The position numbers were made by a program, and so were the translations under genes. A stretch of 64,000 nucleotides of DNA from an uncultured Eubacteriales bacterium (GTDB lineage: Bacteria > Bacillota > Clostridia > Oscillospirales > CAG-272): the NCBI GenBank assembly GCA_934489945.1, contig CAKSSY010000002.1, positions 14,002 through 78,001 on the forward strand, written 5' to 3'. The notes under the pieces were generated by a model, which was not told the DNA's origin, searched no databases, and saw nothing but the letters and a program-made list of their open reading frames with translations. Below are positions 22,731-53,608 of the stretch, piece by piece (within the stretch, counting starts at the first letter, position 1; every line of letters begins with the position of its first letter).

Positions 22731-22756
22731 AAAAAAACAATCCACTCTTTCCGAAA

Positions 22757-22895: not shown

Positions 22896-23008
22896 TTCAA
22901 AAAACAAACAGAAAAATAATCGTTCAAACAACCTTTCAATACGCTCGATCAGAAAAACAGACAGTTGTCAACGCATTTCCAAAGGAAATGTCGCATAACC
23001 TCACACAG

Positions 23009-36444: not shown

Positions 36445-37527
36445 TCAGCCTTGTATATAAGCCTCCCGCCCGCTTTCCGCCGAACGGTAGAAAGCCTCCA
36501 GAATGGCGGAGACCGCGATTGTCTCGGCAGGCTTTACAATCGGATTCTCACGACCCGTCAGCACTTCCCGCAGATTCCGCACAAGATGAATGTGACCCGG
36601 AAAATGACTGTCGGGATACGCCTCAGGAAGAGGAGGCAATTCGCAGTCAGTATTTACGCCGCTGTAGAGCCGGCAGGACGGCAAGGAAATGCCGATATGA
36701 CGGTTCACAAGGGTAATGTCCGATGCCTCCGGCAGATTCGTCGCCCACGCGACCTTGAAATTCATTATCGCCCCGTCCGAAAACCGAACGGTTCCGGCAC
36801 CGAAATCCTCCACATCCATTTCTTCGGGATGAAACTTGGCGATGCTGTCCACGTGACCGGTAAGCGCACCGCTCGCCACAAGGTCACCCAGTTCCCCCGG
36901 ATGATTCCGCTTTGTGCTTGCCAGAACCGAAACGGGATCGGTTCTGCCGGAAAGCCAGATGGCGGCATCCAGCATATGAACGCCGATGTCAAGAAAGGCA
37001 CCGCCTCCCGACACCGCTTTCTTGTGAAAAGAACCCCAAAACGGAATTCCGCGTCTGCGGATACGCGACAGTTCCATATAATAGAAATCGTTCTCTCCGT
37101 GTTCTTCGATGTATTTTTTTGCCGCCAGACGGTCGGGTGTAAAACGCATACTCTGACAAGCCATCAAAACTTTTCCCTGCCGCGCGGCAAAATCGAACAT
37201 TTCGCGTGCGTCCGCCACCGTCATGGCAAGCGGTTTTTCGCAAAGAACGTTTGCTCCGCTGGAAAGTGCCAACATGGTATATTCCTTGTGAAAGCGGTTA
37301 GGGACACAGACCGAAACCACATCGGGAGAAAGCTCGCGAAGCATCACACCGGCATCCGTGTACCAGTGCGGGATTCCGTTTTTTGCCGCCGTGCTTTCCG
37401 CCGCCGCGGCAGAAATATCCGAAACACCGACAATTTCAAAATCTCCGGGAAAAGTACGGTACGCCGGAATGTGCGCGGCATTGGCAATCATACCGCAGCT
37501 GATAATACAAACACGCAACATCCTCAC
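36445..37527 (-). CDS. Gfo/Idh/MocA family NAD(P)-dependent oxidoreductase (canonical)
   Basis: 360 aa with the Rossmann N-terminus RVCIISCGMIANAAH and the EKP motif VLCEKPLAMT. Its ATG overlaps the stop of the upstream TIM-barrel gene (ATGA). Confidence 0.85.
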   Translation of the reverse strand: MRMLRVCIISCGMIANAAHIPAYRTFPGDFEIVGVSDISAAAAESTAAKNGIPHWYTDAGVMLRELSPDVVSVCVPNRFHKEYTMLALSSGANVLCEKPLAMTVADAREMFDFAARQGKVLMACQSMRFTPDRLAAKKYIEEHGENDFYYMELSRIRRRGIPFWGSFHKKAVSGGGAFLDIGVHMLDAAIWLSGRTDPVSVLASTKRNHPGELGDLVASGALTGHVDSIAKFHPEEMDVEDFGAGTVRFSDGAIMNFKVAWATNLPEASDITLVNRHIGISLPSCRLYSGVNTDCELPPLPEAYPDSHFPGHIHLVRNLREVLTGRENPIVKPAETIAVSAILEAFYRSAESGREAYIQG

Positions 37528-38300
37528 ACCTCCCCAAGAAACCCGAAGGTTTCGGCATCCGGCACAGTGGCGCGGTATTCCAACCCGAAATAACCGTCAT
37601 AGCCGGTTTTCAGGATTTCACGCAAAATCGACGGATAATTGACGCATCCTGTTCCCGGCTCGTGTCTGCCCGGACAGTCTGCAATGTGAAAATGTCCGAT
37701 CCGTCCGATCTTCTCGCGGACAAGGGCAAGATCAAAGTCTCCCGTCATGTGTTGATGGTAAATATCATATAACATTTTTACGTTCGGACTGTTCACATCG
37801 TCAAGGATTCTGAAAAGGCGTGCCGCCTCCGGCATGAAATAATTCTTCCTGTCGGTAGCGTTGAGCGGTTCCACAATCAAAGTAATTCCTTCCGCCTCGG
37901 CATAGGGAGCGACAAAAGACAGGCAATCACGGACATTTTCCTCCTGCCTCTCCCTGTCCGGCTCCTCCAAGGTTTCTCCGATAAGAACAATCATCGCCGC
38001 AGCACCGAGTTTATGATAAACCGGCGCGCTCTCCTGCAAAGCGGTAAGCAAATCTTTCTTCCGCCCCGCGTTCAGAATCCCGCGTGAAAGATCATACGAC
38101 AGCGTTTCGTCCCGACTGTCGATATTGAATACCGACAGCTTCATTTCGTTTTCGTTCAGAAGTGTCGTCACACGGTCGATGTCTTTGTTCGTCCACTTCC
38201 AGAACTCCACGGCATCCATACCACAGGCATGCGCCGCGCCGATACGATCCTCAAATGCCATATCGGCGAACATCATGTCAATGCAAGTGCTGATTTTCAT
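37524..38300 (-). CDS. xylose-isomerase-like TIM-barrel protein (sugar phosphate isomerase/epimerase; hydroxypyruvate-isomerase-like)
   Basis: 258 aa with family-typical blocks: GMDAVEFW, ITLIVEPLN, HFHIADCPGRHEPGTG and YDGYFGLEY. 4-nt overlaps with both neighbouring genes. Confidence 0.8.
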   Translation of the reverse strand: MKISTCIDMMFADMAFEDRIGAAHACGMDAVEFWKWTNKDIDRVTTLLNENEMKLSVFNIDSRDETLSYDLSRGILNAGRKKDLLTALQESAPVYHKLGAAAMIVLIGETLEEPDRERQEENVRDCLSFVAPYAEAEGITLIVEPLNATDRKNYFMPEAARLFRILDDVNSPNVKMLYDIYHQHMTGDFDLALVREKIGRIGHFHIADCPGRHEPGTGCVNYPSILREILKTGYDGYFGLEYRATVPDAETFGFLGEV

Positions 38301-39571
38301 TGATCTTCCTCGTAATAATCTTTCTTTGTGATAACAAGACGCTCAAAACTGTCCGGTGCGTCGCCGAAATCCGGAACCTCAAGCGGTTCGCCGTCACGCA
38401 GTGCCGATTCGTGTGCCATAAGTCCCGGAATCATGTAACGTGCCGCATCCCATGCGTTGTTCGGAGGCAGTTTGTCTTCCACCACGGCACGGACAAAATC
38501 GTCTACCAAAAAAGGATGCGTAAACTGATGCCACGGTGCCTTTGTCTCGCGCAATTTTTTCGGAAGGCGCGAAAGATCCTGAATCGGCGAAGGACTGTTG
38601 ACATATTTCGGATTGATCGGATCGGTCGTGTTGTTCATGATGCCGGCGTGCTTGTCATGAACGTAACGGACGGAGTTTATCAATTCGTCAAGATACTCAA
38701 TGTACGGTGTCTCACCGGACGCCCTGCCGCGCTGATAGGTATGCTGAAGTGCACTGCACTCATAGGATCCCATGTCGCCGTAAAGGCAGGTAATATAAGA
38801 GGAAGGTTTGTTGATACCGACACGGCGGAATTCGTTGATACGCGCCACACCGCCGCCCGACATCCGGAAGATTGCCGTTTCATTGGAGAAAGGATTGTCC
38901 CAGAAATTTTTTCCTTCACCGTAAACACCGTCGTCGTGAAAATCACGCATCCCGAAGCAGGTGACTTTGGTTGCGTGTTCTCCGATGGCGGAAAACAGCA
39001 TGGAAACCGAATGTGTGGGATAGAACATCGGCGGAATTCCCGCGGCACGTTGCCAGTGTTCGCCACCGCTCCGCTTGAAATCCACAGACATTTCGTACAT
39101 ATCGTGATAATACTGCGACTCTCCGTATACAAACTTTCCGAAGCCGCCCTCCGCATATTTCTGACGACAGTAAATAGCACAAGGATAGTAATAACAGGTC
39201 TCGCCCATCATATAGACGCGCCCCGAACGCTTTACGGCATCAATAATTTCGCCGATCTCCTCCACGGTGCAGGCAATCGGCACCGCGCTGTAAACATTCT
39301 TTCCCGCTTCCAGTGCTTTCAGAACCATCGGACCGTGCAAATGGCGTTGTGTAAAAATCGCAATACAGTCAATGTCCTTACCGTTTTCGATTGCATCCTC
39401 GAAGGAGGTAAAATACCGCTTGATACCGTGTTTTTCACAGGCTTCCGTAATTCGTTCCGGAACAATGTCGGCAACCGAAACCTCTCCGACATCCGGATGA
39501 TCCCGGAACAGTTCGATAAAATCGTCGGAAAAGGCACCCAATCCGACCACACAGACCTTCAGTTTTTTCAT
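38297..39571 (-). CDS. long (~424 aa) Gfo/Idh/MocA-like oxidoreductase, tandem paralogue 2
   Basis: N-terminus KVCVVGLGAFSDDF. The family EKP motif is replaced by NVYSAVPIACT. More than 60% identical by eye to the gene at 39585-40868. I chose the start at 39571. Confidence 0.75.
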   Translation of the reverse strand: MKKLKVCVVGLGAFSDDFIELFRDHPDVGEVSVADIVPERITEACEKHGIKRYFTSFEDAIENGKDIDCIAIFTQRHLHGPMVLKALEAGKNVYSAVPIACTVEEIGEIIDAVKRSGRVYMMGETCYYYPCAIYCRQKYAEGGFGKFVYGESQYYHDMYEMSVDFKRSGGEHWQRAAGIPPMFYPTHSVSMLFSAIGEHATKVTCFGMRDFHDDGVYGEGKNFWDNPFSNETAIFRMSGGGVARINEFRRVGINKPSSYITCLYGDMGSYECSALQHTYQRGRASGETPYIEYLDELINSVRYVHDKHAGIMNNTTDPINPKYVNSPSPIQDLSRLPKKLRETKAPWHQFTHPFLVDDFVRAVVEDKLPPNNAWDAARYMIPGLMAHESALRDGEPLEVPDFGDAPDSFERLVITKKDYYEEDQ

Positions 39572-39584
39572 CGTATCATCTCCC

Positions 39585-40868
39585 TTATTCTTCGTAATAA
39601 TCTTTCTCGGTATAGGTAAGCCGTTCCCATGACGACGGCGCGTCTCCAAAATCCGGAATGTCCATAAGGATTCCGCCCCGAAGAGCCGATTCGTGCGCTA
39701 CAAGCCCCGGAATCATGTAACGTGCCGAATCCCATGCGTTGTTCGGAGGCAACTTTTCCTCCATGACCGCACGGATGAAATCGTCCACCAGAAAAGGATG
39801 GGAATTGAAATGCGAAAACGGCGCGATATCACGGAACCCCTTCGGCAGACGGCTCTTGTCCTGAACCGGAGAGAACCCTTTGATATACCGTATCGAAATA
39901 GGATCGCTGGACCAATCGATCTTTCCCGCCCTTTTGTCGGCAATGTAGTCGTCACAATTTACAAATTCGTCGAGATATTCGATGTGCGGTTTCTTGTCCT
40001 CACCCATCTTGACGGCGGAAACGCCGCGCTGAAAGGTGTGTTGCGTCACACTGCACTCATAGGCACCCTTGTCCCCGTAAAACGCCGTGATGTAAGAAGA
40101 CGGCTTGTTGATGCCGACCCGGCGGAATTCGTTGATCCGCACTACACCGCCACCCGACATCCGGAAGATTGCCGTCTCGTTGGAGAAGGGATTGTCCCAG
40201 TTGTTTTTGCCGACACCGAAAATGTCGTCGGTATGAAAATTGTCATCCAGTCCCATACAGGAAACCTTGGTAGCATACTCATCAATTGCCGAAAACACCA
40301 TGGAAATGGAGTGCGTGGGATAGAACATCGGCGGAATCCCCGCCACACGTTGCCAATGTTCACCACCGCTACGGCTGAACGAACTGTACATTTCGGAAAT
40401 GTCGTGATAATACTGCGCCTCGGCGTACACGAATTTTCCAAAACCGCCCTCCCGGTATTTTTCACGGCAATAGATGGCACAGGGATAATAATAACAGGTT
40501 TCGCCCATCATATAGACAAGTCCCGTTTTCTTTACCTTTTCAATAATCTCCCCGATTTCTTCAATCGTGCAGGCGATCGGCACGGCACTGTAGACATTCT
40601 TGCCCGCGTCAAGTGCCTGCAACACCATCGGTCCATGAAGATGACGCTGCGTAAAAATTCCGATGCAATTGAGGTCTTTTCCTTCTTTCAACATCTCGTC
40701 AAGCGAATGGTAAAGACGACTTACGCCGTGCTTTGCGCCGCTCTCGGTCAGTCTGCCATCATCCAGATCGGCAATTGCGAGTTCTTCCACATCTGGATGT
40801 TCGTGAAACAGCCGGATAAAATCATCCGAAAAGTTTCCCGCCCCCACAATTCCCATACGCGCTTTCAT
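39585..40868 (-). CDS. long (~427 aa) Gfo/Idh/MocA-like oxidoreductase, tandem paralogue 1
   Basis: N-terminus MGIVGAGNFSDDF and the same SAVPIACT variant. I chose the start at 40868 (AAGGAG Shine-Dalgarno sequence; promoter at 40894-40922); ATGs at 40895 and 40856 are also possible. Confidence 0.75.
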   Translation of the reverse strand: MKARMGIVGAGNFSDDFIRLFHEHPDVEELAIADLDDGRLTESGAKHGVSRLYHSLDEMLKEGKDLNCIGIFTQRHLHGPMVLQALDAGKNVYSAVPIACTIEEIGEIIEKVKKTGLVYMMGETCYYYPCAIYCREKYREGGFGKFVYAEAQYYHDISEMYSSFSRSGGEHWQRVAGIPPMFYPTHSISMVFSAIDEYATKVSCMGLDDNFHTDDIFGVGKNNWDNPFSNETAIFRMSGGGVVRINEFRRVGINKPSSYITAFYGDKGAYECSVTQHTFQRGVSAVKMGEDKKPHIEYLDEFVNCDDYIADKRAGKIDWSSDPISIRYIKGFSPVQDKSRLPKGFRDIAPFSHFNSHPFLVDDFIRAVMEEKLPPNNAWDSARYMIPGLVAHESALRGGILMDIPDFGDAPSSWERLTYTEKDYYEE

Positions 40869-40893
40869 TCTCCGATTCTCCTTGTTTTTCTTC

Positions 40894-40929
40894 ATTGTAC
40901 CACGTCCCGTCACATCCTGCAAGCAGGAT
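40894..40929 (-). promoter_or_regulatory. promoter of the Gfo/TIM-barrel operon with a 16-bp palindrome over the -35 box
   Basis: The minus strand reads TTGCAG (40922-40917), a 17-nt spacer, then an extended -10 TGgTACAAT (40899-40894). The perfect palindrome ATCCTGCAAGCAGGAT (40914-40929) covers the -35. Confidence 0.5.
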
Positions 40930-40964
40930 AACAAACTTTTCTATAACAAAATAAACTTTTTTTC

Positions 40965-40993
40965 TTGTAAAATGCGTTTTTCCGTGATATAAT
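40965..40993 (+). promoter_or_regulatory. sigma-A-type promoter of the divergent AraC regulator
   Basis: TTGTAA (40965-40970), a 17-nt spacer, then TATAAT (40988-40993). An AAGGAG Shine-Dalgarno sequence precedes the ATG at 41022. Confidence 0.55.
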
Positions 40994-41021
40994 TATAAAA
41001 AAAGAGACAAGGAGAAAAACC

Positions 41022-41864
41022 ATGGAACTGCGGGACCTCAATCCCTGCCTGCGTTTCGTACAAAAACGCTCGGTCACGGTATCTTATAAAGAAAACGTAT
41101 ATGCCTATGACTTCCGTTTGTTTTATCTCCTTTCGGGGCGGCTTGATATCAAGGTGGAGGACAAAATGTATATGCTGTCGCCCGATCAGGTGCTTTTTAT
41201 TCCTCCTGCCATTCCGTATCGCGTCTACGCATCGGAGGAAAACGAATTCATCATTCTGAATTTCGATATGACCCAGAAATATGCTGCCACATCATCCATC
41301 ACCCCCGACTACGCAAAGTATTTTGATGCCCGACACGTCATCAATCCCGAAACCGTCTCCGAGCTTTCCGTCACAACCCTGTTTGAAACACCTGACAGTG
41401 CACGGGAAGAAATCAATGCCCTGCATAATTGTTGGCTCGAGGAAATCCTGTATTATAAGGAAGAAAGCGACACGCGGTTGAAGTTGCTTCTGTTGTCACT
41501 CCTTGCTGCCAAACAATCCTCCTCGCCCAGCCACCCTCACATCGTGAATCGAATCCTCCGGTATATCGGCGACCATTATCGGGAGCCGCTTACGGCGGAG
41601 AGACTCGCACGGGAATTTCTTTACCACCCCAATCACCTCGGACGCGTTTTCCGTGAAGCAACCGGTGTCAGTCTGCATCGGTATGTCATAGACTGCCGCT
41701 TGCGGGAAGCGAAGGAGCTGCTTTCGACCACCGATAAAAGTATCGAAACCATCGCGCAACAGACAGGCTTTGAATCTCCGTCCTATTTCTCCAAATATTT
41801 CCGCCAAAAAACCGGTGTCTCCCCGTTCGCCTACCGGGAGAGCCATAAAAAATGGTTGTTCTGA
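41022..41864 (+). CDS. AraC-family transcriptional regulator (cupin-type sensor + HTH)
   Basis: 280 aa with an N-terminal AraC-binding/cupin-like region and a C-terminal HTH (PNHLGRVFREATGVSLHRYV...SPSYFSKYFRQKTGVSPFAYR). Confidence 0.85.
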   Translation: MELRDLNPCLRFVQKRSVTVSYKENVYAYDFRLFYLLSGRLDIKVEDKMYMLSPDQVLFIPPAIPYRVYASEENEFIILNFDMTQKYAATSSITPDYAKYFDARHVINPETVSELSVTTLFETPDSAREEINALHNCWLEEILYYKEESDTRLKLLLLSLLAAKQSSSPSHPHIVNRILRYIGDHYREPLTAERLAREFLYHPNHLGRVFREATGVSLHRYVIDCRLREAKELLSTTDKSIETIAQQTGFESPSYFSKYFRQKTGVSPFAYRESHKKWLF

Positions 41865-43179: not shown

Positions 43180-44460
43180 ATGACCGAAATCAACCTTCCT
43201 TTCGGAAAAGAGACACTCCCCCTCCGTATCGCCGACAATCACCTTGCCGCCATTCTCACCTCGGATATTCATAACTACATTCCCGGAAAAAGCGGCGCGG
43301 AACTTGTCCGGGAGGCATTGGAGCATCCTGTCGGCACACCCCGACTTTGTGACATGGCAGAAGGAAAAAATAAGGTGGTCGTCATATCCTCCGATCACAC
43401 ACGACCCGTTCCCAGTCATATTATCATGCCCCTGTTGCTTGCAGAGATCCGCCGCGGAAATCCCGATGCCGACATTACCATCCTTGTCGCCACGGGACTG
43501 CACCGCTCCACGACACGAGACGAATTGCGGGATAAATACGGAGAAGAGATTTTCAACCGTGAAAAAATCGTGATCCATGATTGCGATGACGAAAAGAATC
43601 TCGTTCGTGTAGGCAAACTCCCCTCCGGCGGCGAACTGATTCTGAATCGCCTTGCCGTGGAAGCGGATCTTCTGGTAGCCGAGGGATTCATTGAACCGCA
43701 TTTCTTTGCCGGATTTTCAGGCGGCAGAAAGAGCGTCCTGCCCGGAATTGCAAGCCGTAAGACCGTGATTTATAACCACAATTCGACATTTATCGCGAAC
43801 GAAAACGCACGCACGGGAAAACTGGACGGCAACCCCATTCACACCGATATGCTGTATGCCGCAAGAGCCGCAAGACTTGACTTTATCGTCAATGTCGTCA
43901 TTGATGCCGCTCACGAACCCATTTATGCCGTGGCGGGCGATTGCGATCTTGCCCACCGAGTCGGGAGAGAGTTCCTTGCCTCCCATTGCCGGAAGAAAGC
44001 CGTTCCCGCCGACATCGCCATCTCCACCAACGGCGGCTATCCGCTCGACCAGAACCTCTATCAGGCAGTCAAGGGCATGACAGCGGCAGAAGCCACCGTT
44101 CGCGAAGGCGGTGTCATTGTTATGGTTGCCAAGGCGGTGGACGGTCACGGCGGGGAATCTTTTTATAAAACCTTCCGGGATGCCGCGGATCTGCCCGCAC
44201 TCATGCAGTCCTTCCTCGATCGCAAGCCCGAGGATACGATTGTGGACCAGTGGGAATCGCAGATTCTTGCGCGGATTCTCCTGAAATGCCGCGTAATTTT
44301 TGTCTCTTCCTGCCCGGATGAGCTCATCCGTGAGATGCACATGATCCCTGCCCATACCATGGACGAGGCAATGGAAAACGCCATACGCCTTGTGGGAAAA
44401 GAGGACTATCGGGTAACGATCATTCCCGATGGTGTCTCGGTGATTGTGGAGCCGGCATGA
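43180..44460 (+). CDS. larA: LarA-family (nickel-pincer-dependent lactate racemase-like, DUF2088) protein
   Basis: 426 aa with the motifs VVVISSDHTRPVP, ILVATGLHR, EPHFFAGFSGGRKS and a C-terminal Rossmann-like half. The substrate cannot be read from the sequence. Confidence 0.75.
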   Translation: MTEINLPFGKETLPLRIADNHLAAILTSDIHNYIPGKSGAELVREALEHPVGTPRLCDMAEGKNKVVVISSDHTRPVPSHIIMPLLLAEIRRGNPDADITILVATGLHRSTTRDELRDKYGEEIFNREKIVIHDCDDEKNLVRVGKLPSGGELILNRLAVEADLLVAEGFIEPHFFAGFSGGRKSVLPGIASRKTVIYNHNSTFIANENARTGKLDGNPIHTDMLYAARAARLDFIVNVVIDAAHEPIYAVAGDCDLAHRVGREFLASHCRKKAVPADIAISTNGGYPLDQNLYQAVKGMTAAEATVREGGVIVMVAKAVDGHGGESFYKTFRDAADLPALMQSFLDRKPEDTIVDQWESQILARILLKCRVIFVSSCPDELIREMHMIPAHTMDEAMENAIRLVGKEDYRVTIIPDGVSVIVEPA

Positions 44461-45365
44461 ATAAACAGGAATCTGTTCGAATCAGTGCCGGTATCGGAAC
44501 CCTTATCACCGCCCAAAATCCCGTCATTTCCTATACCGCCGACGATGTAGAGAAAGCCAAAGCCTCCTACGACGCGGCAGAACTTGCCGAAATGCGGGAA
44601 CTGGGGCTTCTCGGAGAAGATTTTGAAGCCTATTTCGTAATTCGTGAATTTTGCGAACGCATCGGCTTGGGGGATGCGGCGGACGGCACATATATTCTGA
44701 AACTGTTTCAGAATTCCCGTCGGTTGGATGCCGATGCCTTTCTCCGTGACCCATACCTCCGCACGGTCAGCGTAACGGAGAAACAAATCGGTCGTTTTCT
44801 CCTGACGAATGCCGAATATGAACACGGCGAAATCTTTCTCTATGATATGCCGGACTTTACCGCTCCCATCGTAGTTCCGAAAATCGGCTTTTTTAACCGC
44901 CGTGTGCGCTTTCCGACCCTGTATGAAGGCAGTATGCCGTGGATCAGCGTCTGTCCTTCCGAAGTCAATTCCATGGAAAAAGAGATTGCCGCGGCGCACG
45001 GACGTGTGCTGGTTCTCGGACTCGGGCTCGGCTACTATCCCTTCCGCATCTCTGCCAAGCCGGAGGTGGAAAGTATCACGATTATTGAATTACAGAAAAC
45101 GATCATAGATATATTTTGCGAAAACCTCCTTCCGCAGTTTCCCGAACGCCAAAAAATACGGATTGTGAGAGGAGATGCCATCGCTTATCTTGGCTCGGTA
45201 CGCGACGGAGACTATGACTTCTGTTTTGCCGACATCTGGGAAGGTGTCGTCGACGGCGTTCCGCTCTATGAAAAGATTCGTCCGCACGAACACCGCCTTT
45301 TCTCTACCCATTTCACCTATTGGATCGGCGACCAGCTTTCTTATCTGTCGGAAACAGAAAAATAA
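44457..45365 (+). CDS. hypothetical protein with a spermidine-synthase-like / class I methyltransferase fold in its C-terminal half
   Basis: 302 aa. Its ATG overlaps the larA stop (ATGA). Glycine-rich loop VLVLGLGLGY, followed by IIELQKTIID...IVRGDAIAYL...DFCFADIWEG. Confidence 0.5.
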   Translation: MNKQESVRISAGIGTLITAQNPVISYTADDVEKAKASYDAAELAEMRELGLLGEDFEAYFVIREFCERIGLGDAADGTYILKLFQNSRRLDADAFLRDPYLRTVSVTEKQIGRFLLTNAEYEHGEIFLYDMPDFTAPIVVPKIGFFNRRVRFPTLYEGSMPWISVCPSEVNSMEKEIAAAHGRVLVLGLGLGYYPFRISAKPEVESITIIELQKTIIDIFCENLLPQFPERQKIRIVRGDAIAYLGSVRDGDYDFCFADIWEGVVDGVPLYEKIRPHEHRLFSTHFTYWIGDQLSYLSETEK

Positions 45366-45374
45366 AAACGAAGG

Positions 45375-45420
45375 GGTGGAAAAAACTCAAAATGAGTTTT
45401 TTCCACCTCATTTTCTTTTG
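45375..45420 (+). terminator. intrinsic terminator
   Basis: GGTGGAAAAAACTCA-aaa-TGAGTTTTTTCCACC followed by TCATTTTCTTTTG. Confidence 0.8.
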
Positions 45421-45446
45421 CATATTTTCGGTGTTCAACACATAAA

Positions 45447-45875
45447 ATTTCGAGAGGGGAGGCGATCCGAACGGAGTTCCTATGGAAATGCCGCAACGTA
45501 AACATACGGGAAGACGGGGTAACACTTGTACGCGGCTCCTTTCGTTATCCCGTTCTGCCGAAAGAGGATCTCTACGGCGAACTTGCCGAAAAATGCGAGA
45601 ACTGGCTCCGCGCGGAGCTTGCGCCTGTCGCGGCGCGGGAATACGCCGAATTCCCCTCGGCAAAAAAACACTTTTTCTTTCCCTCCTATGACTACCGCTT
45701 TGAGGTACAGACGACAGAAAAAACGGCATCAAGCGTCACTCTGAAGCTGCAAGTGACGCTTGCACGCCGCCATACACACGAGCCACCGGTTCATACCGAA
45801 AGTCTTGAGACCTTCCGCCTGTCGGATATGCGACTCCTGCCGCCGGTGCGACAAAAGAAAACGAAATCCTCTGAC
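45447..45875 (+). pseudogene. protein-like open frame without a canonical start codon (possible pseudogene or unusual start)
   Basis: Frame 0 is open from 45396 to TGA at 45873-45875 and translates to a non-repetitive, protein-like sequence (...IREDGVTLVRGSFRYPVLPKEDLYGELAEKCENWLRAELAPVAAREYAEF...). The only in-frame ATG/GTG/TTG codons are at 45753 and 45828. A strong GAGAGGGGAGG Shine-Dalgarno-like sequence sits at 45452-45462. Confidence 0.3.
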
Positions 45876-45917
45876 AAACATCCCCCCGATGCACACTCGT
45901 GAATCGGGGGGATTGCT

Positions 45918-48131
45918 TTACATACCTTCCAGGAATCTGTCCACCACAAGCTGGCGGAATTGCGGAGAAAGCGATGCAAAATACGCCGTAAAACCTGTCA
46001 CACGCACCACCAGATCGGGATAGGCTTCCGGATCCCGATTTGCCGCCATCAGTTTTTCTCCGTCGAGAATATTGATGTTGATCAGTGTTCCGCCACGCTT
46101 GAAATGCCCCTCAATAAAGGCAAGAATAATGTCCACACCGTGTTCGTCCGCGGCAACCTTCGGATCAAATTCAATCTGAAGCGGCGCGGTATTACCGTAA
46201 CCGCACTGCACATCGGCAATCCCGTTCGACTGTGCCGTAACCGCACCGTCCACACGGAAGTGGGGGTTCGGGTTCGCACCGTGCGAAATCGGCTCTCCGC
46301 GTCGACGACCGTTCGGCGTGGCACCGACCACACTTCCGTATTCAATCGTCCGCGCCCATGAGAACCACCCCGGCACCAATGTCCGACCGCCCGGCATCGG
46401 CTGTGCTTTGACAGCCTTCACCCATGTTTCGGTCAGCCGCTTGGCAAACTCGTCGGAAATTGTCCCGCCGTGACAGTATTTCGGTGACGTATTCATCATC
46501 AGCCGCAGACTTTCATCGGCAAAATTGTTGTCGAGTGCCTCGTAGAGTTCGTCCCACGTCAGTTTCTTTTCTCTCTCAATGCGTGTCACAACGGCACCGA
46601 AAGAATCGGCAACCACGGCAAGTCCCGCACCGTCCACACCGATCGTGAAAAGCCGTGCACACTCGGAGGCATCCAGCCCCTTCTCCAACGAACCGGCAAA
46701 CATCAGATTCATGATCAATTCGGGCGTCACATCGTGAATGTGATCCAGATGCAGGTTGACCCCCGCCGCCGTGACCTCAATGGCTTTTTTCAGATGTTTT
46801 TCAAAGAGCGAATACAGTTTCTCGCTTGAGCGTTCCGTCTCTGTTCGCATTTCTTCCAATGCCACTTCCAAAACTTTGGCAATGTTGATCTTTACCGTGT
46901 CGTTCATCGGAAACTCCAAACCGGGAACACACATCCAGTTGCAACCGACCGCAATACGGCGACGCGCAGTCTCTTTGTCCACACCGTTTCTCATGTAGCC
47001 TTCGCAGAGTGTCTTGTCGCCGCAGAAACGTGGCCATCCGTTTTTGTTTTTCAAAAGACAGGCGACGGCTTTCCGAAGGAAAACCCGATCGCAGTTTTCG
47101 TGAACCCGAACGGTTAAATTGCAGGAAATATTGATGGAATCGGCGGCATCAAGAATCAGATAAGAAAGATGATTGGTCAGATCTCGGTCTTTTTCGTCCA
47201 CACCCGAAATCTGATAATAGTGCGGATCAATGAGAAGCAGATTGGCAATCAGAAATTTCGCCGTTTCATCATCCAGAATTCCTGCCCTGATGTCGTTTTC
47301 ATAGTAAGGCAGAAGAAGTGTGTCCAACTGAAATCCGGCACCGTCGCGCGTATAAATACGCGCGGCGCAGTTGAAGAACGCCACCCATTGGCAAGCCTCG
47401 TGAAAGGTTTTCGGTGCATTCAGCCGCACAGCTTCACAAACGACAAGCATCTTTTCAAGCGATTCCCGAATCTCCGGACGTTCCTCCCCGGGAATCATCT
47501 CGCGGATCTTCTCAATATGCCGATCCACAAAGGCGATAATGGCACGGACACAACGCTCCTCAGCATCGTAAAAATCCTTTTTGTCGGGATGGAGCTTGCG
47601 GTACTTTTCGATCTTCTCCAAAAAACCGCCGAATCCGAGCGAAAGACCGATGGAATAATCGCAGGCAAAATGCGCGTCACCGTCGATACCGGTCTGAATA
47701 TTGTACTTTTTCTGAAGCGGTTTCAACTCATCATAGGGAAAATGCTTTTCGTCCCACCGCTTGCTCCATTGTGCGGTAGCACCGTTCAGAATGGCACAGA
47801 GCTTCTCGTTCTTTTTGATCCAATCCGGCATATAATGTACATCGCCGCGGTAGTTGACCAGCATATCGCGCCACCTGCCGCAAAGCATTTCCATCGGATC
47901 GACATAGGCAGGATGCGCCCCGATCACACGGCAGAAATTCTCTGCCATACCGTCAAGTCCGTAAAAACTGCCGTTTTCGCTGTTGTATGCCGGCTCCACA
48001 TAATACCCCTCCGGCAACGGAACGGTACCGAAATCATCAAGATCGGTATAGCCGTTCTGCCGCTTTTTGGCAAGTGTATGTTCAATTTTGGTTTTCCGCA
48101 TAGCACAAAGTCTGTCCCGATAACTCAACAT
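45918..48131 (-). CDS. glycyl radical enzyme (PFL-like fold) with an atypical active-site loop; substrate unknown
   Basis: 737 aa with GRE blocks TFHEACQW, NLTVRV, VGATPNGRRRGEPISHG and GGTLININILD, plus the C-terminal glycine loop VVRVTGFTAYF (Gly codon at 45993-45995). The Cys loop is VGCNWMCVPG (Cys codon at 46941-46943) rather than GCVE or CC. Confidence 0.8.
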   Translation of the reverse strand: MLSYRDRLCAMRKTKIEHTLAKKRQNGYTDLDDFGTVPLPEGYYVEPAYNSENGSFYGLDGMAENFCRVIGAHPAYVDPMEMLCGRWRDMLVNYRGDVHYMPDWIKKNEKLCAILNGATAQWSKRWDEKHFPYDELKPLQKKYNIQTGIDGDAHFACDYSIGLSLGFGGFLEKIEKYRKLHPDKKDFYDAEERCVRAIIAFVDRHIEKIREMIPGEERPEIRESLEKMLVVCEAVRLNAPKTFHEACQWVAFFNCAARIYTRDGAGFQLDTLLLPYYENDIRAGILDDETAKFLIANLLLIDPHYYQISGVDEKDRDLTNHLSYLILDAADSINISCNLTVRVHENCDRVFLRKAVACLLKNKNGWPRFCGDKTLCEGYMRNGVDKETARRRIAVGCNWMCVPGLEFPMNDTVKINIAKVLEVALEEMRTETERSSEKLYSLFEKHLKKAIEVTAAGVNLHLDHIHDVTPELIMNLMFAGSLEKGLDASECARLFTIGVDGAGLAVVADSFGAVVTRIEREKKLTWDELYEALDNNFADESLRLMMNTSPKYCHGGTISDEFAKRLTETWVKAVKAQPMPGGRTLVPGWFSWARTIEYGSVVGATPNGRRRGEPISHGANPNPHFRVDGAVTAQSNGIADVQCGYGNTAPLQIEFDPKVAADEHGVDIILAFIEGHFKRGGTLININILDGEKLMAANRDPEAYPDLVVRVTGFTAYFASLSPQFRQLVVDRFLEGM

Positions 48132-48141
48132 CTTTCATTCC

Positions 48142-49245
48142 TCAACTTTCCGCAACCGCTTCCGCTTTGCCGGTACGGTTCGATTTTTCCGCCGCCGCAA
48201 TCATGGCAATGACATCGGCATTGAATTCCGCTGTCAGCGTTTCGTGCATGGAAGTTCCGTGCAGAACGTGCGCGGCGTACTGCCACGGCATATTCCGAAA
48301 GGCGGGATCGTCGGGGATTTCCGCCACTTCCAGATCGTTTCCGTAAAGATCGGAGGCTACCGTAAAGGCTTCCCCGTCCGGCACGCCGTCACACCAGACA
48401 ACACCGTCCGAACAAATCGCTTCGGGTCCTGTCGGCATCCGACGGCGCGGCGTGGTCCATGTTCCCTCGGCAACCGCAAAGCCGTTCTTGTAACGCATCA
48501 GTGCGGCAATGTTGTCCTCCACGTTTCCATAGGGCGTTCCGAGATTTTCTCCCACCGACATCACACTCTCCGGCAGACCGCCGAACATCCATCTGGCAAA
48601 ATAACAGCCGTAGCACAAAATGTCGAGATAGGCACCACCACCGCACTCTTTCCGATACCACCATGTGCGACCGCGTTCCTCGTCGGTCATTTCCTCCGCC
48701 CGGTCGGAAACGCCGCGGTGCTTGGCACCCTTTCCCAAAGGACCCGTATGACCATTCAGATAACGAAGTTTTTGCAGTTTTCCGATTTTTCCGCTGTCCA
48801 ATTCTTCCTTCATCTGCCGCACATAACGACGCCACGTAACAGGCCAGTTGACAAACACTTCCACGCCGTATTTTTCTTTCAGCGCGACAATCCGCGCAGC
48901 ATCCTCCGGCGTTGCCGCCATCGGTTTCTCCAGAATGACATTCACACCGCGCCTGGCGACCTCCTCCGCGACCTCCGCTTTGCGGACGTTTTCGCAAAGA
49001 AGATACGCAACATCGGGTTTCACCTCGTCCAGCATAGTTCTGTAGTCGTCAAAGGGCTTCGCACCGCAGTTTTCGACAACATTTTTAAAATTCCATGCAC
49101 GGGTGTAGCGTTTTTCGGTGTTTTCCGGCAACGCCGCGGGAATGTCGGCAACACCGCACAATTCACTTTCGGGTTGTCCTTTGATATAAAGAGCCACCTC
49201 ATTGACGTGCATATGTGCACATCCGATAATAACCGAACGAATCAT
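48142..49245 (-). CDS. Gfo/Idh/MocA-like oxidoreductase with a degenerate dinucleotide-binding motif (paralogue D)
   Basis: 367 aa. The N-terminus is RSVIIGCAHMHVNE instead of GxGxxG/A. EKP is present (ILEKPMAAT). Shares WWYRKECGGGAYLD with paralogue B. Confidence 0.75.
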   Translation of the reverse strand: MIRSVIIGCAHMHVNEVALYIKGQPESELCGVADIPAALPENTEKRYTRAWNFKNVVENCGAKPFDDYRTMLDEVKPDVAYLLCENVRKAEVAEEVARRGVNVILEKPMAATPEDAARIVALKEKYGVEVFVNWPVTWRRYVRQMKEELDSGKIGKLQKLRYLNGHTGPLGKGAKHRGVSDRAEEMTDEERGRTWWYRKECGGGAYLDILCYGCYFARWMFGGLPESVMSVGENLGTPYGNVEDNIAALMRYKNGFAVAEGTWTTPRRRMPTGPEAICSDGVVWCDGVPDGEAFTVASDLYGNDLEVAEIPDDPAFRNMPWQYAAHVLHGTSMHETLTAEFNADVIAMIAAAEKSNRTGKAEAVAES

Positions 49246-49262
49246 AAAAATCTCCTTTCCGT

Positions 49263-50381
49263 TCAGACAATCTCATCGGCACGGACTTCTCTTCCCGTCT
49301 TTGCCGACCGATAGAAGCATTCGATGATCTTTGCGACCTCCAGATTCTGGTGTTCTTTGATGAGATATTCCGCATTGCCTGCCAACGTTTCGAGAATATT
49401 GTCATACATATACCGATGCTGTTCAAAAGGAACCCCTTTGTACTCGCCGTTGTCAAACCATTTCAGTTTTGTCTCTGCCTGGTATTTTCCCACATTCTTG
49501 TAGAGCGTTTCGTTGTTGACCGAAAGTCCCCCGCGGTCTCCGCAGATCACCATGTCGAGGTTCGTCGTCGGCAGGTTGATTGCCCATGAAAACTTGAAGT
49601 TCACCGACATTCCGTTGTCCAGACGCATAAAGCCGGTGGAAAATTCCTCCACATTGAACTCGTGATAATCGTAAGGACGAGGCGTAAAGGTTCCAGCATA
49701 CGCTCCGCTCTCGGCAATGCTGATCATCACATCATCACCACGGCAACCGATCTTATTGTACGCCGAACCGCTGACCGAAACCACCTTCGGGTCTCCACAA
49801 ATCCAAAGCAACGAGTCAATCAAATGAACGCCAAGATCGCAGAAAGGACCGCCGTAGTTGTGTTCCTTCATGTGGAACATACCCCATGTCGGAATTCCGT
49901 AGCGACGGATGAATGCGATGTCGGAGAAATACGGGACCCCCAATTCACCGCTGTCCACAAGAATCTTCGATTGTTGCATATAGTTGCGCCATCTCATACA
50001 TTGACAGGGAAACAGCATCCGTCCGCAACGCTTGGCGGTATCCCACATTTCCTTGGCATCGGCGTAGGTCACGGCAATCGGTTTTTCGCAAGCAACATGC
50101 GCGCCTGCCTCCAGCGCGGCGATCGTCCACTGCTTGTGATAAACATTCGGGGTACAGACCGACACAAAGTCCGGCTTCACCTCATCAAGCATCCGTGCGG
50201 GATCGGCATACCACTTCTCCACCCCGTGCCGCTTTGCCGTTTCCTCAGCAACCTCCGGGCGAATGTCGGCAACGGCGACCACGTCCACAATACCTTTGTT
50301 TCTCAAAATATTCAACGCCGGAAAATGTGCCTGATTGGCAATCATACCGGTTCCGATTATAGCGACTCTGATCTTGTTCAT
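49263..50381 (-). CDS. Gfo/Idh/MocA family oxidoreductase (canonical, paralogue C)
   Basis: 372 aa with RVAIIGTGMIANQAH and VACEKPIAVT. I chose the start at 50381 (AGGGAG Shine-Dalgarno sequence). Confidence 0.85.
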   Translation of the reverse strand: MNKIRVAIIGTGMIANQAHFPALNILRNKGIVDVVAVADIRPEVAEETAKRHGVEKWYADPARMLDEVKPDFVSVCTPNVYHKQWTIAALEAGAHVACEKPIAVTYADAKEMWDTAKRCGRMLFPCQCMRWRNYMQQSKILVDSGELGVPYFSDIAFIRRYGIPTWGMFHMKEHNYGGPFCDLGVHLIDSLLWICGDPKVVSVSGSAYNKIGCRGDDVMISIAESGAYAGTFTPRPYDYHEFNVEEFSTGFMRLDNGMSVNFKFSWAINLPTTNLDMVICGDRGGLSVNNETLYKNVGKYQAETKLKWFDNGEYKGVPFEQHRYMYDNILETLAGNAEYLIKEHQNLEVAKIIECFYRSAKTGREVRADEIV

Positions 50382-50394
50382 GTTCTTCTCCCTT

Positions 50395-51468
50395 TCAAAT
50401 CTCTGTTTGGACGAATCCACCCGATTTCACCGACTTTCTGCCGGCATCCAACGCGGCACAAACGTCAAGATTGATTCCGGGTGTCAGCATTTCGTTGATT
50501 GATTCCTTTCCCCGCAGGAAAGCGATCAGGTTGGCACCGAGAAGGTCAAGCTGTCGATCAGCCTCCGCGTCAATCACTTCGGACGGCTCAACGGGTCTGT
50601 GTTCCGCACCAACGTATACCTTCACGAGATTGCTGTAACGATCACAGACAATCGTCCCCTCGGTTCCGTAGATCACCGGTCCCGATGGCACCTGACCGCA
50701 GTTGAAGGTCAACCATGACCCTTCCAAAAGACCTACGCCATCTCCAAAATCCAGCATCATGGAGCTGTAATCCTCCGCATCCGAGAATCCGGCGGTAAAA
50801 TTCTTTGTCATAGCGCACACACGTTCGGCGCGTTTGCCGAAAATCCACGTAGCAAGCATCGTTCCGTAGCAGGCATAGTCCAAAAAAGCACCGCCGCCGC
50901 GGTCGTGCCGATACCACCAACTTGCCGCTTTTTCTTCGGTCGGCTTTGTCAGGTTGTAGGGTCCCCATGTCGCGGGACTGCGATACGTCACGCGCATCAC
51001 CTTCCCGATTCTGCCGCTGCCGGCAAGCTCTTTGGCAATCCGGAATGCCGGAACCCACGCAATCGGCCAGTTTGTAAGAAACGGCGTATCATTTTTTTGG
51101 GCACATTCGGCTATTTTCACGGCGTCGGCATAGTCCATTGCCATCGGTTTTTCATCGAGCGTCGGAATTTTTTGCGAAAGAAGTCCACAGCAAATGTCTC
51201 CGCGTGACCGATTGTCACTCATCACAACCGCAAGATCGGGCATTTTCGCCGCAAGTTCCCGCCAATCATCAAAAATCCGAAGATCGGCAATGTCAGTCGC
51301 ATTTCCGAGATTGCGAAGCCGCGCCGCGTAAGGTTGATCGTCGACCGGCGGAACATCGGCGGCACCAAGAAACTCCACCTCATCCGTATGCAGGGCAAGC
51401 GTCTTGCGAAGCATCCCCGCGTGCGGATGCGCCATGCCGAAAAAGGCAACTTTCAGTTTATTCATCAT
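50395..51468 (-). CDS. Gfo/Idh/MocA-like oxidoreductase with a degenerate dinucleotide-binding motif (paralogue B)
   Basis: 357 aa with KVAFFGMAHPHAGM, LDEKPMAMD and WWYRHDRGGGAFLD. I chose the start at 51468 (AAGGAG Shine-Dalgarno sequence). Confidence 0.75.
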   Translation of the reverse strand: MMNKLKVAFFGMAHPHAGMLRKTLALHTDEVEFLGAADVPPVDDQPYAARLRNLGNATDIADLRIFDDWRELAAKMPDLAVVMSDNRSRGDICCGLLSQKIPTLDEKPMAMDYADAVKIAECAQKNDTPFLTNWPIAWVPAFRIAKELAGSGRIGKVMRVTYRSPATWGPYNLTKPTEEKAASWWYRHDRGGGAFLDYACYGTMLATWIFGKRAERVCAMTKNFTAGFSDAEDYSSMMLDFGDGVGLLEGSWLTFNCGQVPSGPVIYGTEGTIVCDRYSNLVKVYVGAEHRPVEPSEVIDAEADRQLDLLGANLIAFLRGKESINEMLTPGINLDVCAALDAGRKSVKSGGFVQTEI

Positions 51469-51476
51469 CCGGCTCC

Positions 51477-52568
51477 TTAAAATGTAGTTTCCAGATTTAC
51501 AGTGCTTCCCGTGCGGGCGGCTTCGGGAATCTTGCACATAATTTCCAGAACATGACGCGCGTGTTCAGGACGAAGAACAGGTTCGGTTCCCTTCTCCGCC
51601 GCCCGAATCAGATCGGCAAGACAACAGCACTGACTCTTGAGCTTTGGCGGATTGGTCTCCCAACTTTGCGCCGTAATCCATCCGCGGACACCGATCGCCG
51701 GAGAATCGATATACAGATCGGGAATCGGGTTGGTCATATAGGGTTGCGTCACGGCAATCGTTCCCTGCGTACCGAAAATTTCAAGCTGTGGAGCCTTGGT
51801 TGCCCTCTGTGAAAAACCGGTATCAACAAAACCGATCTTTCCGTTGGCAAACGTCAGCGAGATCAAATATTCATCCGGAATCTTGTCGGATTTGATCTTC
51901 TTGCCGTTAAAAGCCCCCGAGCGCACTACGCGGGCAGGATTTGTGACAGCGGCAAGACAGGAGATTGACTTTGCGGGACCGAACATGGTCGTCACAATCT
52001 GTAAACCGTGAACTCCCATATCGACGAGTGCACCCGCTCCGTCCTCAAAAAACCATGTCGGATCGGCATTCCGGAACTGAAAATACTCCGGACCGCCGTG
52101 TGCCGAATTACACTTGATGTAAGTCGCTTCACCAATCGCACCGTCACGTATCATCTGCTTTGCCACGGCAAGATCGTAACGCATCGGATGAATGGGGGCG
52201 CAGACAAACTTCACCCCTTTTGCCCTCGCCAGTTCAATCTGTTCGGTCATAAGCGCAACGGCGGGGGCAGCGGGCTTCTGAGAAATCAGATGCTTCCCCG
52301 CATTCAGCACCGCCATGTTGATCTCGTGATGAGCCTGGATAGAAGCCGCATCTATGGCAATGTCAAAATCGCACTTTTTGATCATCTCATAAACATTCGG
52401 ATACCACGAGGGCACATCGAACCGGCGCGCAGCAGACTCGGCACGTTCGGGTACAATATCGCAAACCGCCACACACACGGCATTTGCTTCTTTGGCAATG
52501 TTGGGGAGGTATTGCGCGGTGGCAAACATTCCGCATCCGATCACGGCAACCTTCCATTTTTTCATCAT
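51477..52568 (-). CDS. Gfo/Idh/MocA family oxidoreductase (canonical Rossmann, QKP variant; paralogue A)
   Basis: 363 aa with KVAVIGCGMFATAQ and LISQKPAAP. I chose the start at 52568 (GGAGGG Shine-Dalgarno sequence). Confidence 0.85.
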   Translation of the reverse strand: MMKKWKVAVIGCGMFATAQYLPNIAKEANAVCVAVCDIVPERAESAARRFDVPSWYPNVYEMIKKCDFDIAIDAASIQAHHEINMAVLNAGKHLISQKPAAPAVALMTEQIELARAKGVKFVCAPIHPMRYDLAVAKQMIRDGAIGEATYIKCNSAHGGPEYFQFRNADPTWFFEDGAGALVDMGVHGLQIVTTMFGPAKSISCLAAVTNPARVVRSGAFNGKKIKSDKIPDEYLISLTFANGKIGFVDTGFSQRATKAPQLEIFGTQGTIAVTQPYMTNPIPDLYIDSPAIGVRGWITAQSWETNPPKLKSQCCCLADLIRAAEKGTEPVLRPEHARHVLEIMCKIPEAARTGSTVNLETTF

Positions 52569-52603
52569 GAATCCCTCCGTTCGGAATTTTGTTCGGTCGC
52601 CCT

Positions 52604-52661
52604 TTACAAGAAAAGGCTTTTCTGATATAATCATTATAAAACAAAAACCAAAACCGAGCAA
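52604..52661. promoter_or_regulatory. divergent promoter region between the Gfo/GRE operon and its AraC gene
   Basis: Plus strand: TTACAA (52604-52609), 16 nt, TATAAT (52626-52631). Minus strand: TTGCTC (52661-52656), 17 nt, TATAAT (52638-52633). The two -10 boxes are separated by 1 nt (TATAATcATTATA). The palindrome AGAAAAGgCTTTTCT lies at 52609-52623. Confidence 0.45.
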
Positions 52662-52681
52662 TACACAATCTGAATATCTTC

Positions 52682-53608
52682 ATGCACAAAATGAACATTC
52701 GGGAGGAAATTATGCTTTACCGGATTTCCCTGTCCGCCCTGCCGGAGCTTTGCGAAATCTATGAAATCGAGCGAAAAACCGTGTGGCGTTGCGCCGATCG
52801 GCGCAATATCCTCGTTCATATCACCGACGGCAGTTGTCTCTTTGAGATTGACGGCGACGAACTGCTCCTGACGCGTGGCGAAACGCTCTTAATCCCCGCA
52901 GGACAGGAATATACCCGTCGCCCGGCAAACGATGCGCTCTGTCGCTTCGTCTACCTCCACTTCCGCACCGACACGCCAATCTGCGCTGTCACCGAAGAAG
53001 AAGCAACAAACGAACGCCGCACCGAGGATGAGAATGCGGAACCCGGTGTTCCCGTCACACGGCGCGTGCTGTTTTTCCCGCAGGTCAGCCCTGTCGGTCA
53101 GACCGCTGAACAACGGAATGCCCTTCTGCACAAAATCATCACCGAACGCTACGCCCATATGGGACTTTCGCGTACCTTTTCGGCAATCTACCTGTGCGAA
53201 TTTCTTGCATTCCTCGCCTCGGAGTCGGATATCAACGGCAGTGCCAAAACCGGAATCGGACAACACCTCCCACGTCCGTTGCGGGAAGCATTGCTCTATA
53301 TCCGGCAAAATTACGACCGTAAAATCACGACTGAAGACCTCTGTCGGCATTGCGGACTCTCCCCTCAGCATTTGATTCGACTGTTCCGCAAACACCTCGG
53401 AACGACACCGATTCAGTATATCAACCGCAACAAAATCATGCACGCAATCGAAATGCTCCGTACATCCGAACTGACAGTCAAGGAGATTGCTTACTCGCTC
53501 GGCTATGACAATCCCAATTATTTCAGCCGTCTTTTTACGAAACTGGAAAACACCTCCCCCCGTGCCTGTCGCGAAAGAATACGAAGCTATTCAGATACAC
53601 TTGAATAA
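52682..53608 (+). CDS. AraC-family transcriptional regulator (cupin-type sensor + HTH)
   Basis: 308 aa with a cupin-like N-terminal region (LLLTRGETLLIPAGQEY) and a C-terminal HTH (SPQHLIRLFRKHLGTTPIQYI...NPNYFSRLFTKLENTSPRACR). Confidence 0.85.
   Translation: MHKMNIREEIMLYRISLSALPELCEIYEIERKTVWRCADRRNILVHITDGSCLFEIDGDELLLTRGETLLIPAGQEYTRRPANDALCRFVYLHFRTDTPICAVTEEEATNERRTEDENAEPGVPVTRRVLFFPQVSPVGQTAEQRNALLHKIITERYAHMGLSRTFSAIYLCEFLAFLASESDINGSAKTGIGQHLPRPLREALLYIRQNYDRKITTEDLCRHCGLSPQHLIRLFRKHLGTTPIQYINRNKIMHAIEMLRTSELTVKEIAYSLGYDNPNYFSRLFTKLENTSPRACRERIRSYSDTLE

Follow-up and report, generated by a model that had tools for sequence, protein, structure and literature searches.

A glycyl radical enzyme with a C-x-W catalytic loop, encoded with four Gfo/Idh/MocA family proteins in a conserved gene neighborhood of gut Clostridia

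Glycyl radical enzymes (GREs) catalyze the most difficult bond cleavages of anaerobic gut metabolism, which yield trimethylamine, p-cresol, H2S precursors, and breakdown products of hydroxyproline. Here we describe an operon of an uncultured Eubacteriales bacterium (contig CAKSSY010000002.1), in which a GRE gene (45918–48131, minus strand; 737 amino acids) is preceded by four genes coding for Gfo/Idh/MocA family proteins, termed GfoA to GfoD; the window is the whole stretch of 64 kb that was analyzed. The closest described GREs are the 1,2-eliminases glycerol dehydratase and propanediol dehydratase, and the enzymes YbiW and PflD of “anhydroglycolysis”, which cleave a C-O bond by radical chemistry and thus open the ether of a sugar ring. 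A review of June 2026 states that a C-x-E motif (CXE) is kept in all six C-O eliminases, in CutC, in the C-S lyases, and in three isomerases; its glutamate forms hydrogen bonds to the substrate hydroxyl and deprotonates it, and His164 of glycerol dehydratase is the acid which protonates the leaving hydroxyl (PMC13450708). The same review notes that whole GRE clades are without validation, and it lists no class which lacks CXE yet is eliminase-like, and none which is partnered with sugar dehydrogenases. DgpA, a described relative of some of the Gfo partners, oxidizes C- and O-glycosides at C3; the resulting 3-oxo-O-glycosides collapse non-enzymatically to the aglycone and a hexose enediolone, and 3-oxo-C-glycosides require a dedicated C-deglycosidase (PMC11239390). 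The preliminary description of the locus knew of no characterized GRE system that has a quartet of Gfo partners, and in the library searched we likewise found no paper, GRE preprints since 2023 and the 2026 review included, which describes such a system or reports a GRE together with Gfo/Idh/MocA or DgpA-type partners. What is new here is the altered catalytic loop of the GRE, along with the partners that it has; the GRE superfamily itself is already known.

The 737-residue protein matched PF02901 (E 4e-92) and PF01228 (E 7e-13) and shows the glycine loop, the catalytic cysteine, and the barrel fold of the superfamily, in line with its earlier designation as a GRE. The glycine loop, R710-V-T-G713-F, is of the RVxG[FWY] type and is invariant in 40 aligned relatives. 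Cys397, also invariant among the aligned relatives, corresponds to Cys433 of glycerol dehydratase and Cys431 of PflD. Residue roles were assigned by sequence alignment to glycerol dehydratase, in which H154, nearly invariant among the relatives, and D410 align as the equivalents of His164 and Asp447, respectively. An AlphaFold (AF2) model built from the 40-sequence alignment (pLDDT 91.4) was matched by Foldseek to propanediol dehydratase (5i2g) with a TM-score of 0.85, and to about 50 GRE chains with scores of 0.78–0.85 (0.77–0.85 for all other GRE structures); the known GRE structures share 17–23% sequence identity with the window GRE. What the protein lacks is the CXE motif. Within the cysteine loop, G-C-N-W-M-C-V-P-G, the sequence C397-N-W399 stands in place of C-x-E, and Trp399 occupies the position of the glutamate.

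The best sequence match in the PDB was glycerol dehydratase (1r8w, E 3e-52), followed by PflD (E 4e-51), and the best NCBIfam match was TIGR01774, the PFL2/glycerol dehydratase subfamily, with 258 bits as compared to a cut-off of 678. All of the NCBIfam equivalogs, i.e., those for HypD, CutC, sulfopropanediol dehydratases, pyruvate formate-lyase (PFL), and decarboxylases, scored below 220 bits against cut-offs of at least 1000. The window GRE fits no curated GRE family and falls outside the characterized clades. With glycerol and propanediol dehydratase it shares the RVxG glycine loop, the position of the catalytic cysteine, and the His164 and Asp447 equivalents; it differs from them in being 20–22% identical and about 50–100 residues shorter, in carrying C-N-W instead of C-x-E, and in its context, which comprises Gfo/Idh/MocA partners but neither microcompartment nor aldehyde dehydrogenase genes. 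Public annotation names relatives of the protein “formate acetyltransferase” or “pyruvate formate lyase family protein”. An identity as PFL can practically be dismissed, as the score for TIGR01255 was 68 bits against a cut-off of 994, the PDB match to PFL was weak and partial (E 5e-18), and the loop G-C-N-W-M-C has no adjacent Cys-Cys pair. C401 was considered as a second catalytic cysteine of a PFL-like pair and rejected, because this position is occupied by Ala or Ser in close relatives.

An exhaustive HMMER search with the window GRE covered 1.84 billion cluster representatives. The nearest ~25 full-length clusters (28–53% identity) all had a C-x-W motif (CNW, CHW, CFW, CQW, or CPW), and C-x-E proteins appeared only lower down the ranking; the window GRE belongs to a large uncharacterized C-x-W clade. 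More than 120 clusters at 77–85% identity to it form a tight family. Species-representative genomes yielded 179 matching stretches, the best 80 of which were about 73–85% identical to the window GRE. Carriers were metagenome-assembled genomes (MAGs) of gut Clostridia from humans, including Hadza and Nepali subjects, from ruminants, and from other herbivores, as well as the isolate Qingrenia yutianensis (GCA_014385105.1, locus L001); the closest GREs came from fecal MAGs of uncultured Eubacteriales and Clostridia. One protein in the searches (P0127; 1052 amino acids, 42% identical to the window GRE) carries a radical SAM activase and a C-x-W GRE naturally fused in a single chain. The C-x-W enzymes constitute an unstudied branch of GRE chemistry. 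If their reaction were solved, it could uncover a further way in which plant glycosides, anhydro-sugars, or similar compounds of the diet are broken down without oxygen, and could show a GRE working without the canonical glutamate. Q. yutianensis, a cultured carrier whose operon is complete and includes the activase, makes the system experimentally tractable.

The four genes upstream of the GRE gene code for GfoA (51477–52568, 363 amino acids), GfoB (50395–51465, 356 amino acids), GfoC (49263–50381, 372 amino acids), and GfoD (48142–49245, 367 amino acids), all on the minus strand. As the preliminary description had it, all four are Gfo/Idh/MocA proteins, with scores above the Pfam cut-offs for PF01408 (N-terminal Rossmann domain) and PF22725 (C-terminal alpha/beta domain). 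They are ancient paralogs rather than recent duplicates, since their mutual identity is only 22–31%. GfoC aligned over residues 1–363 with DgpA (7xr9; E 1e-56, 196 bits), including the CEKP and GGPxxDxGxH blocks, and is a full-length homolog of this glycoside 3-dehydrogenase. The resemblance to DgpA is weaker for GfoA (E 9e-19). The EKP motif occurs in GfoB, GfoC, and GfoD, and is replaced by QKP in GfoA. Residues 314–316 of GfoA are Cys-Cys-Cys, a motif which is unusual for Gfo/Idh/MocA proteins and at least 95% conserved in 28 aligned GfoA sequences. GfoD and GfoB form a separate pair of paralogs (29% identity) with EKP kept, an invariant G-x-[AS]-H-x-H loop which replaces GxGxxG (G-x-A-H-x-H in GfoB, G-x-x-H-M-H in GfoD), and a tyrosine where DgpA-type enzymes have histidine. 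An AF2 model of GfoD (pLDDT 90.9) best matched 1,5-anhydro-D-fructose reductase, followed by glucose-fructose oxidoreductase (GFOR) and the anhydro-sialic acid oxidoreductase RgNanOx.

The arrangement was compared among orthologous loci, which were scored by tblastn against reference proteins, each count being limited to loci with enough upstream sequence. In 72 of 75 loci, the gene immediately preceding the GRE codes for a radical SAM activase (TIGR02494, 260 bits; cut-off 174), and in 65 of 71, GfoD in turn precedes the activase. Architectures were counted in those 56 loci whose upstream sequence spans 6.5 kb or more; 44 of them contain a DgpA-like Gfo gene. The most frequent order was GfoA-B-C-D-activase-GRE (14 loci), followed by GfoD-activase-GRE (9 loci) and by an order in which a long Gfo protein of ~430 amino acids, a TIM barrel protein, and a Gfo protein of the type of Qingrenia Gfo356 precede GfoD-activase-GRE (8 loci). 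In six loci both modules occur in tandem (TIM barrel-Gfo356 type-GfoA-B-C-D-activase-GRE), four have GfoC-D-activase-GRE, and three, namely, the window and the sister loci L073 and L079, show GfoA-B-C-D-GRE without the activase. According to these counts, GfoD-activase-GRE is the constant core, preceded by two alternative or additive front ends, i.e., GfoA-B-C and long Gfo/TIM barrel/Gfo356. The Gfo quartet that had been noted as the partner set of the GRE does recur, with GfoA-B-C-D(-activase)-GRE in no fewer than 23 of these 56 loci, but GfoA-B-C proved to be one of two interchangeable front ends. The Gfo-rich neighborhood is conserved, and no pathway has been assigned to it in the literature; together with the placement of the GRE, this was judged to support the earlier proposal of an undescribed catabolic pathway combining redox steps and radical chemistry. 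The arrangement is repeated across dozens of genomes from gut and rumen, and it suggests that carbohydrates or glycosides are degraded there by an anaerobic pathway not yet described. Some genomes contain two GRE copies: in the Tyzzerella MAG RGIG4201 (loci L050 and L056) each copy has a different Gfo front end, and in the MAG JAZQCN01 (L039 and L077) the sequence of L039 begins 99 nt upstream of the GRE.

Elements of this neighborhood extend to a more distant locus (L088, P0123) with a GRE of 44% identity, where a GfoC ortholog (57%), a GfoD-like protein (36%) with the same type of loop (G-F-A-H-V-H), a 145-residue open reading frame (ORF) which had no family match, the activase, and the GRE are encoded in succession; upstream, past a divergent LacI-type regulator, lie genes for a PF12831 flavoprotein and ATP-binding cassette (ABC) permeases. 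Directly 3' of the GRE, members of the family mostly have genes for redox and carbonyl enzymes and sugar genes. A PF12831 flavoprotein occurs there in 14–15 loci, and others code for iron-sulfur aldo-keto reductases (AKR-FeS), iron-dependent alcohol dehydrogenases (Fe-ADH), short-chain dehydrogenases (SDR), another Gfo protein, aldose 1-epimerase, PfkB kinases, or glycoside hydrolases of families GH2, GH5, and GH30. The GRE family and its relatives are found in a context of carbohydrate metabolism.

The second front end is also present in the window, as a separate AraC-divergent operon (36445–41864) 5 kb from the GRE operon, which amends the preliminary view of the locus in that a TIM barrel partner exists. 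This Q module, on the minus strand, begins with two tandem genes for long Gfo/Idh/MocA proteins of 424 and 427 amino acids (38297–40868; 68% mutually identical, 62–64% identical to Qingrenia Gfo433), continues with a xylose-isomerase-like TIM barrel of 258 amino acids (37524–38300; PF01261), and ends with Gfo358 (36445–37521), a DgpA-like GfoC paralog which is 59% identical to Qingrenia Gfo356. A second AraC/cupin regulator is encoded divergently (41022–41864, plus strand). The single GRE operon of Qingrenia, with Gfo433 as its first gene and Gfo356 within, joins what the window splits in two. Where Qingrenia has one copy of the long Gfo gene, the window has a pair; the C-terminal halves of these proteins match no Pfam family. 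The TIM barrel, of the hydroxypyruvate/2-oxo-tetronate isomerase type, matched 3ngf and 1k77 in the PDB (E 1e-22) and TIGR03234 with 166 bits, below the cut-off, and is 65% identical to a member of the Qingrenia operon. The Gfo/TIM barrel/Gfo organization of the Q module presents the same domains as the Gfo dehydrogenase, AP_endonuc_2 eliminase/hydratase, and Gfo reductase of the 3-keto-glycoside and levoglucosan pathways, but its matches to LevoglcsnDh, BT_2158, and BT_2159 were all far below cut-off. We know of no GRE in these pathways.

The combination of several Gfo paralogs with an AP_endonuc_2 TIM barrel is typical of iol loci, and the same genes might be read as a cyclitol (inositol-type) pathway, in which the Gfo enzymes would interconvert or oxidize inositol isomers; dehydration or cleavage of the carbocycle under anaerobic conditions would fall to the GRE instead of IolE/IolD. 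Inositol 2-dehydrogenase (TIGR04380) is indeed the top NCBIfam match of both GfoC and GfoA, and the TIM barrel shows weak matches to IolO and IolE. We consider such a pathway improbable, as the TIGR04380 scores of 74–87 bits are far under the cut-off of 355, GfoC matches DgpA far better (196 bits, full length), iolB, iolC, iolD, and iolJ are absent from all loci sampled, and the surroundings consist of glycoside hydrolase and sugar transporter genes.

The described system which the locus resembles most on the Gfo side is DgpA-DgpBC of gut Lachnospiraceae: GfoC and Gfo358 are full-length homologs of DgpA, the host belongs to the gut Clostridia, and both systems are redox-neutral and Gfo-based. 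The difference is that a GRE takes the place of the bond-breaking enzyme. No DgpB or DgpC homolog was found, the GRE operon having no TIM barrel gene and the sole TIM barrel of the window matching no C-deglycosidase chain at E ≤ 0.001. Starting from the gene content, motifs, fold, and conserved synteny, we infer a substrate class, an order of steps, and residue roles. The explanation which we favor, tentatively and with somewhat less than even confidence, is that the operon is induced through AraC and serves the catabolism of a neutral compound of carbohydrate type, i.e., a glycoside or a ring-locked anhydro- or keto-sugar, which would be oxidized, cleaved by radical chemistry, and then reduced. 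GfoC and GfoA would oxidize a ring carbinol, most likely at C3 of a pyranose, to form a keto-sugar; with O-glycosides, the aglycone would also be released in this step, leaving an anhydro-enediolone sugar. The GRE, through the radical at Gly713 and the thiyl of Cys397, would abstract a hydrogen next to the carbonyl group and break a C-O bond closed to hydrolysis (ring ether, aglycone, or hydroxyl), with His154 as the putative acid. The enzyme may do without the glutamate base, since the radical would lie alpha to the keto group introduced by GfoC and would already be acidic, and Trp399 might stack on the ring of the sugar. In the last step, the carbonyl product would be reduced by GfoD and GfoB, whose resemblance is to GFOR, KijD10, and anhydrofructose reductase. 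GfoA-B-C on the one hand and Gfo427/424-TIM barrel-Gfo358 (36445–40868) on the other may act as alternative front ends feeding the GfoD-activase-GRE core.

Several observations weigh against this explanation. Non-radical E1cB enzymes of the DgpBC and LgdB type can perform both C-O and C-C cleavage of 3-keto-sugars, so that the proposal does not account for the use of a radical enzyme; this is its main weakness. The operon encodes neither a transporter nor a kinase, so that the substrate class derives solely from homology and context. The similarity of GfoD and GfoB to named enzymes is weak throughout (17–20% identity), and no activase is visible for the window copy of the GRE. Nine of the 56 loci comprise only GfoD-activase-GRE and two only activase-GRE, and the DgpA-like step is thus not obligatorily linked to the GRE. 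The order of steps is unconstrained by the data, and the GRE could act first.

The main rival explanation takes up this last point. The GRE would act on an unoxidized, neutral, ring-locked sugar or polyol, e.g., 1,5-anhydroglucitol or 1,5-anhydromannitol, as an unphosphorylated counterpart of YbiW/PflD or of the diol dehydratases, and the Gfo enzymes would only interconvert epimers via keto intermediates or reduce the carbonyl product. Radical opening of anhydro-sugar phosphates by YbiW and PflD provides a precedent (PMC13450708), the two systems share a carbohydrate context, and PflD is the second-best PDB match of the window GRE. The retention of the glycerol dehydratase His164 equivalent as His154 and the resemblance of GfoD to 1,5-anhydro-D-fructose reductase also speak for an initial radical step. 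The same is true of relatives whose operons are devoid of Gfo genes: the operon of P0122 (GRE 48% identical) consists of a CUT2 monosaccharide ABC transporter, the activase, the GRE, and a ROK protein and nothing else, and that of P0121 (53% identical) of the activase, the GRE, and a PFK-family kinase. The two described enzymes themselves retain CXE and use 6-phosphates as substrates; the present locus has no kinase or phosphotransferase system gene, has lost CXE, and contains dehydrogenase partners. Against a GRE-first order, the glutamate which deprotonates the carbinol radical in every characterized eliminase and isomerase is absent, and the close association with a DgpA-type 3-dehydrogenase, which extends to distant relatives, suggests that oxidation is part of the core chemistry. 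On balance, we regard a GRE-first pathway as unlikely. A further relative (P0158, locus L096; 31% identical, C-F-W loop) is located behind a CUT1 sugar ABC transporter and an SIS protein; URO-D family genes flank this GRE on both sides and constitute a different, equally unexplained set of partners.

A farther-reaching extension of the oxidize-cleave-reduce proposal, which we put forward as a possibility and regard as rather doubtful, is that C-x-W GREs represent a new mechanistic class performing radical chemistry on pre-oxidized (keto) sugars, with the GRE replacing a DgpBC-type lyase and the Gfo enzymes both making the radical substrate and reducing the product. If so, gut Clostridia would possess a radical route into 3-keto-glycosides and anhydro-sugars, possibly including C-glycosidic or ring-ether bonds beyond the reach of hydrolases.

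The preliminary description had emphasized that the operon has no transporter, kinase, or activase gene. While none is present in the operon itself, sugar ABC transporters do occur beside more distant relatives, and the absence of the activase is an exception of this genome and not a feature of the system, because in 72 of the 75 orthologous loci the activase gene stands between those of GfoD and the GRE. In the 64-kb window, a CX3CX2C scan and tblastn searches (E thresholds of 1e-20 and 10) detected no activase and no activase remnant. This raises the alternative that the window GRE is an inactive orphan, dead after deletion of the activase, with the operon working, if at all, through its dehydrogenases alone; according to the review, activases are specific to their GRE (PMC13450708), and the retention of the activase in nearly all orthologous loci points in the same direction. 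Arguing against this, the GRE ORF of the window is intact with all invariant residues present, and its 10-nt junction with GfoD is furnished with its own Shine-Dalgarno sequence. Moreover, for the GRE genes of L073 and L079, the sister loci without an activase, the ratio of nonsynonymous to synonymous substitution rates (dN/dS) is 0.047, which argues for a functional GRE with an activase supplied in trans. The activase of Qingrenia, the sole ortholog examined, is short (255 amino acids), with Fer4_12 and Radical_SAM as its only Pfam domains, and in the window's genome another activase could plausibly substitute. A dead GRE seems improbable to us, and the activase for the window GRE would rather be provided in trans.

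The layout of the GRE operon is compact. The gaps between its five minus-strand genes, from GfoA to the GRE, are 11 nt (8 nt if an upstream ATG is used), 13, 17, and 10 nt, and all five starts are preceded by purine-rich Shine-Dalgarno sequences (GGAGGG, AAGGAG, AGGGAGA, and AAGGAG; GAGGAA is weaker), just as first described. Promoter- or terminator-like matches inside the operon did not exceed the expectation from shuffled sequences. A terminator hairpin with a perfect, G+C-rich stem of 10 bp (45881–45912, minus strand; −27.8 kcal/mol, z −6.1) is located directly 3' of the GRE gene, beginning 6 nt past the stop codon. On the opposite side, an AraC-family regulator with a cupin-type sensor (AraC-type ligand-binding domain) is encoded divergently on the plus strand (52682–53608). 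Its start is probably the ATG at 52712, which is preceded by a GGGAGG Shine-Dalgarno sequence and gives a protein of 298 amino acids; with this start, the divergent control region (52569–52711) has a length of about 143 nt instead of the 113 nt originally given. The back-to-back TATAAT boxes reported there are indeed present as mirror images, at 52626–52631 on the plus strand and 52638–52633 on the minus strand. The plus-strand promoter, on the AraC side, scored 11/12 and has a TG extension; the minus-strand promoter, on the operon side, has a weak −35 element (TTGCTC), as expected for an activator-dependent promoter.

Past the GRE hairpin, a bidirectional terminator of 17 bp (45373–45409) follows at a distance of about 470 nt. 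The intervening stretch (45410–45880), a position which in other genomes often holds the PF12831 flavoprotein gene, contains no convincing gene, and tblastn found no remnant of this flavoprotein 3' of the window GRE. A distant paralog may be encoded by a 528-residue ORF at 5597–7183 (minus strand), which in tblastn showed ~30% identity over partial alignments to the GRE-linked PF12831 flavoproteins; an ORF of 289 amino acids (7502–8371) lies beside it.

Between the two Gfo operons (43180–45365, plus strand), a nickel-dependent LarA protein (NF033504, 620 bits; cut-off 460) is encoded with a 4-nt overlap to an ORF of 302 amino acids, with no larB, larC, or larE genes nearby. The LarA, methyltransferase, and 302-residue ORF genes between the operons were considered as pathway members and rejected, since they are not conserved beside the GRE elsewhere; LarA, in addition, is a bona fide lactate racemase.

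A search of Rfam at the gathering threshold found no RNA leader or riboswitch at the GRE operon, and only distant riboswitches for S-adenosylmethionine (SAM) and flavin mononucleotide (FMN) in the window. The SAM riboswitch (21871–21955, minus strand) is located ahead of a metK-like gene (20624–21808), and the FMN riboswitch (22786–22899, minus strand) ahead of a gene for a 238-residue membrane protein (22029–22745), which is probably a riboflavin transporter.

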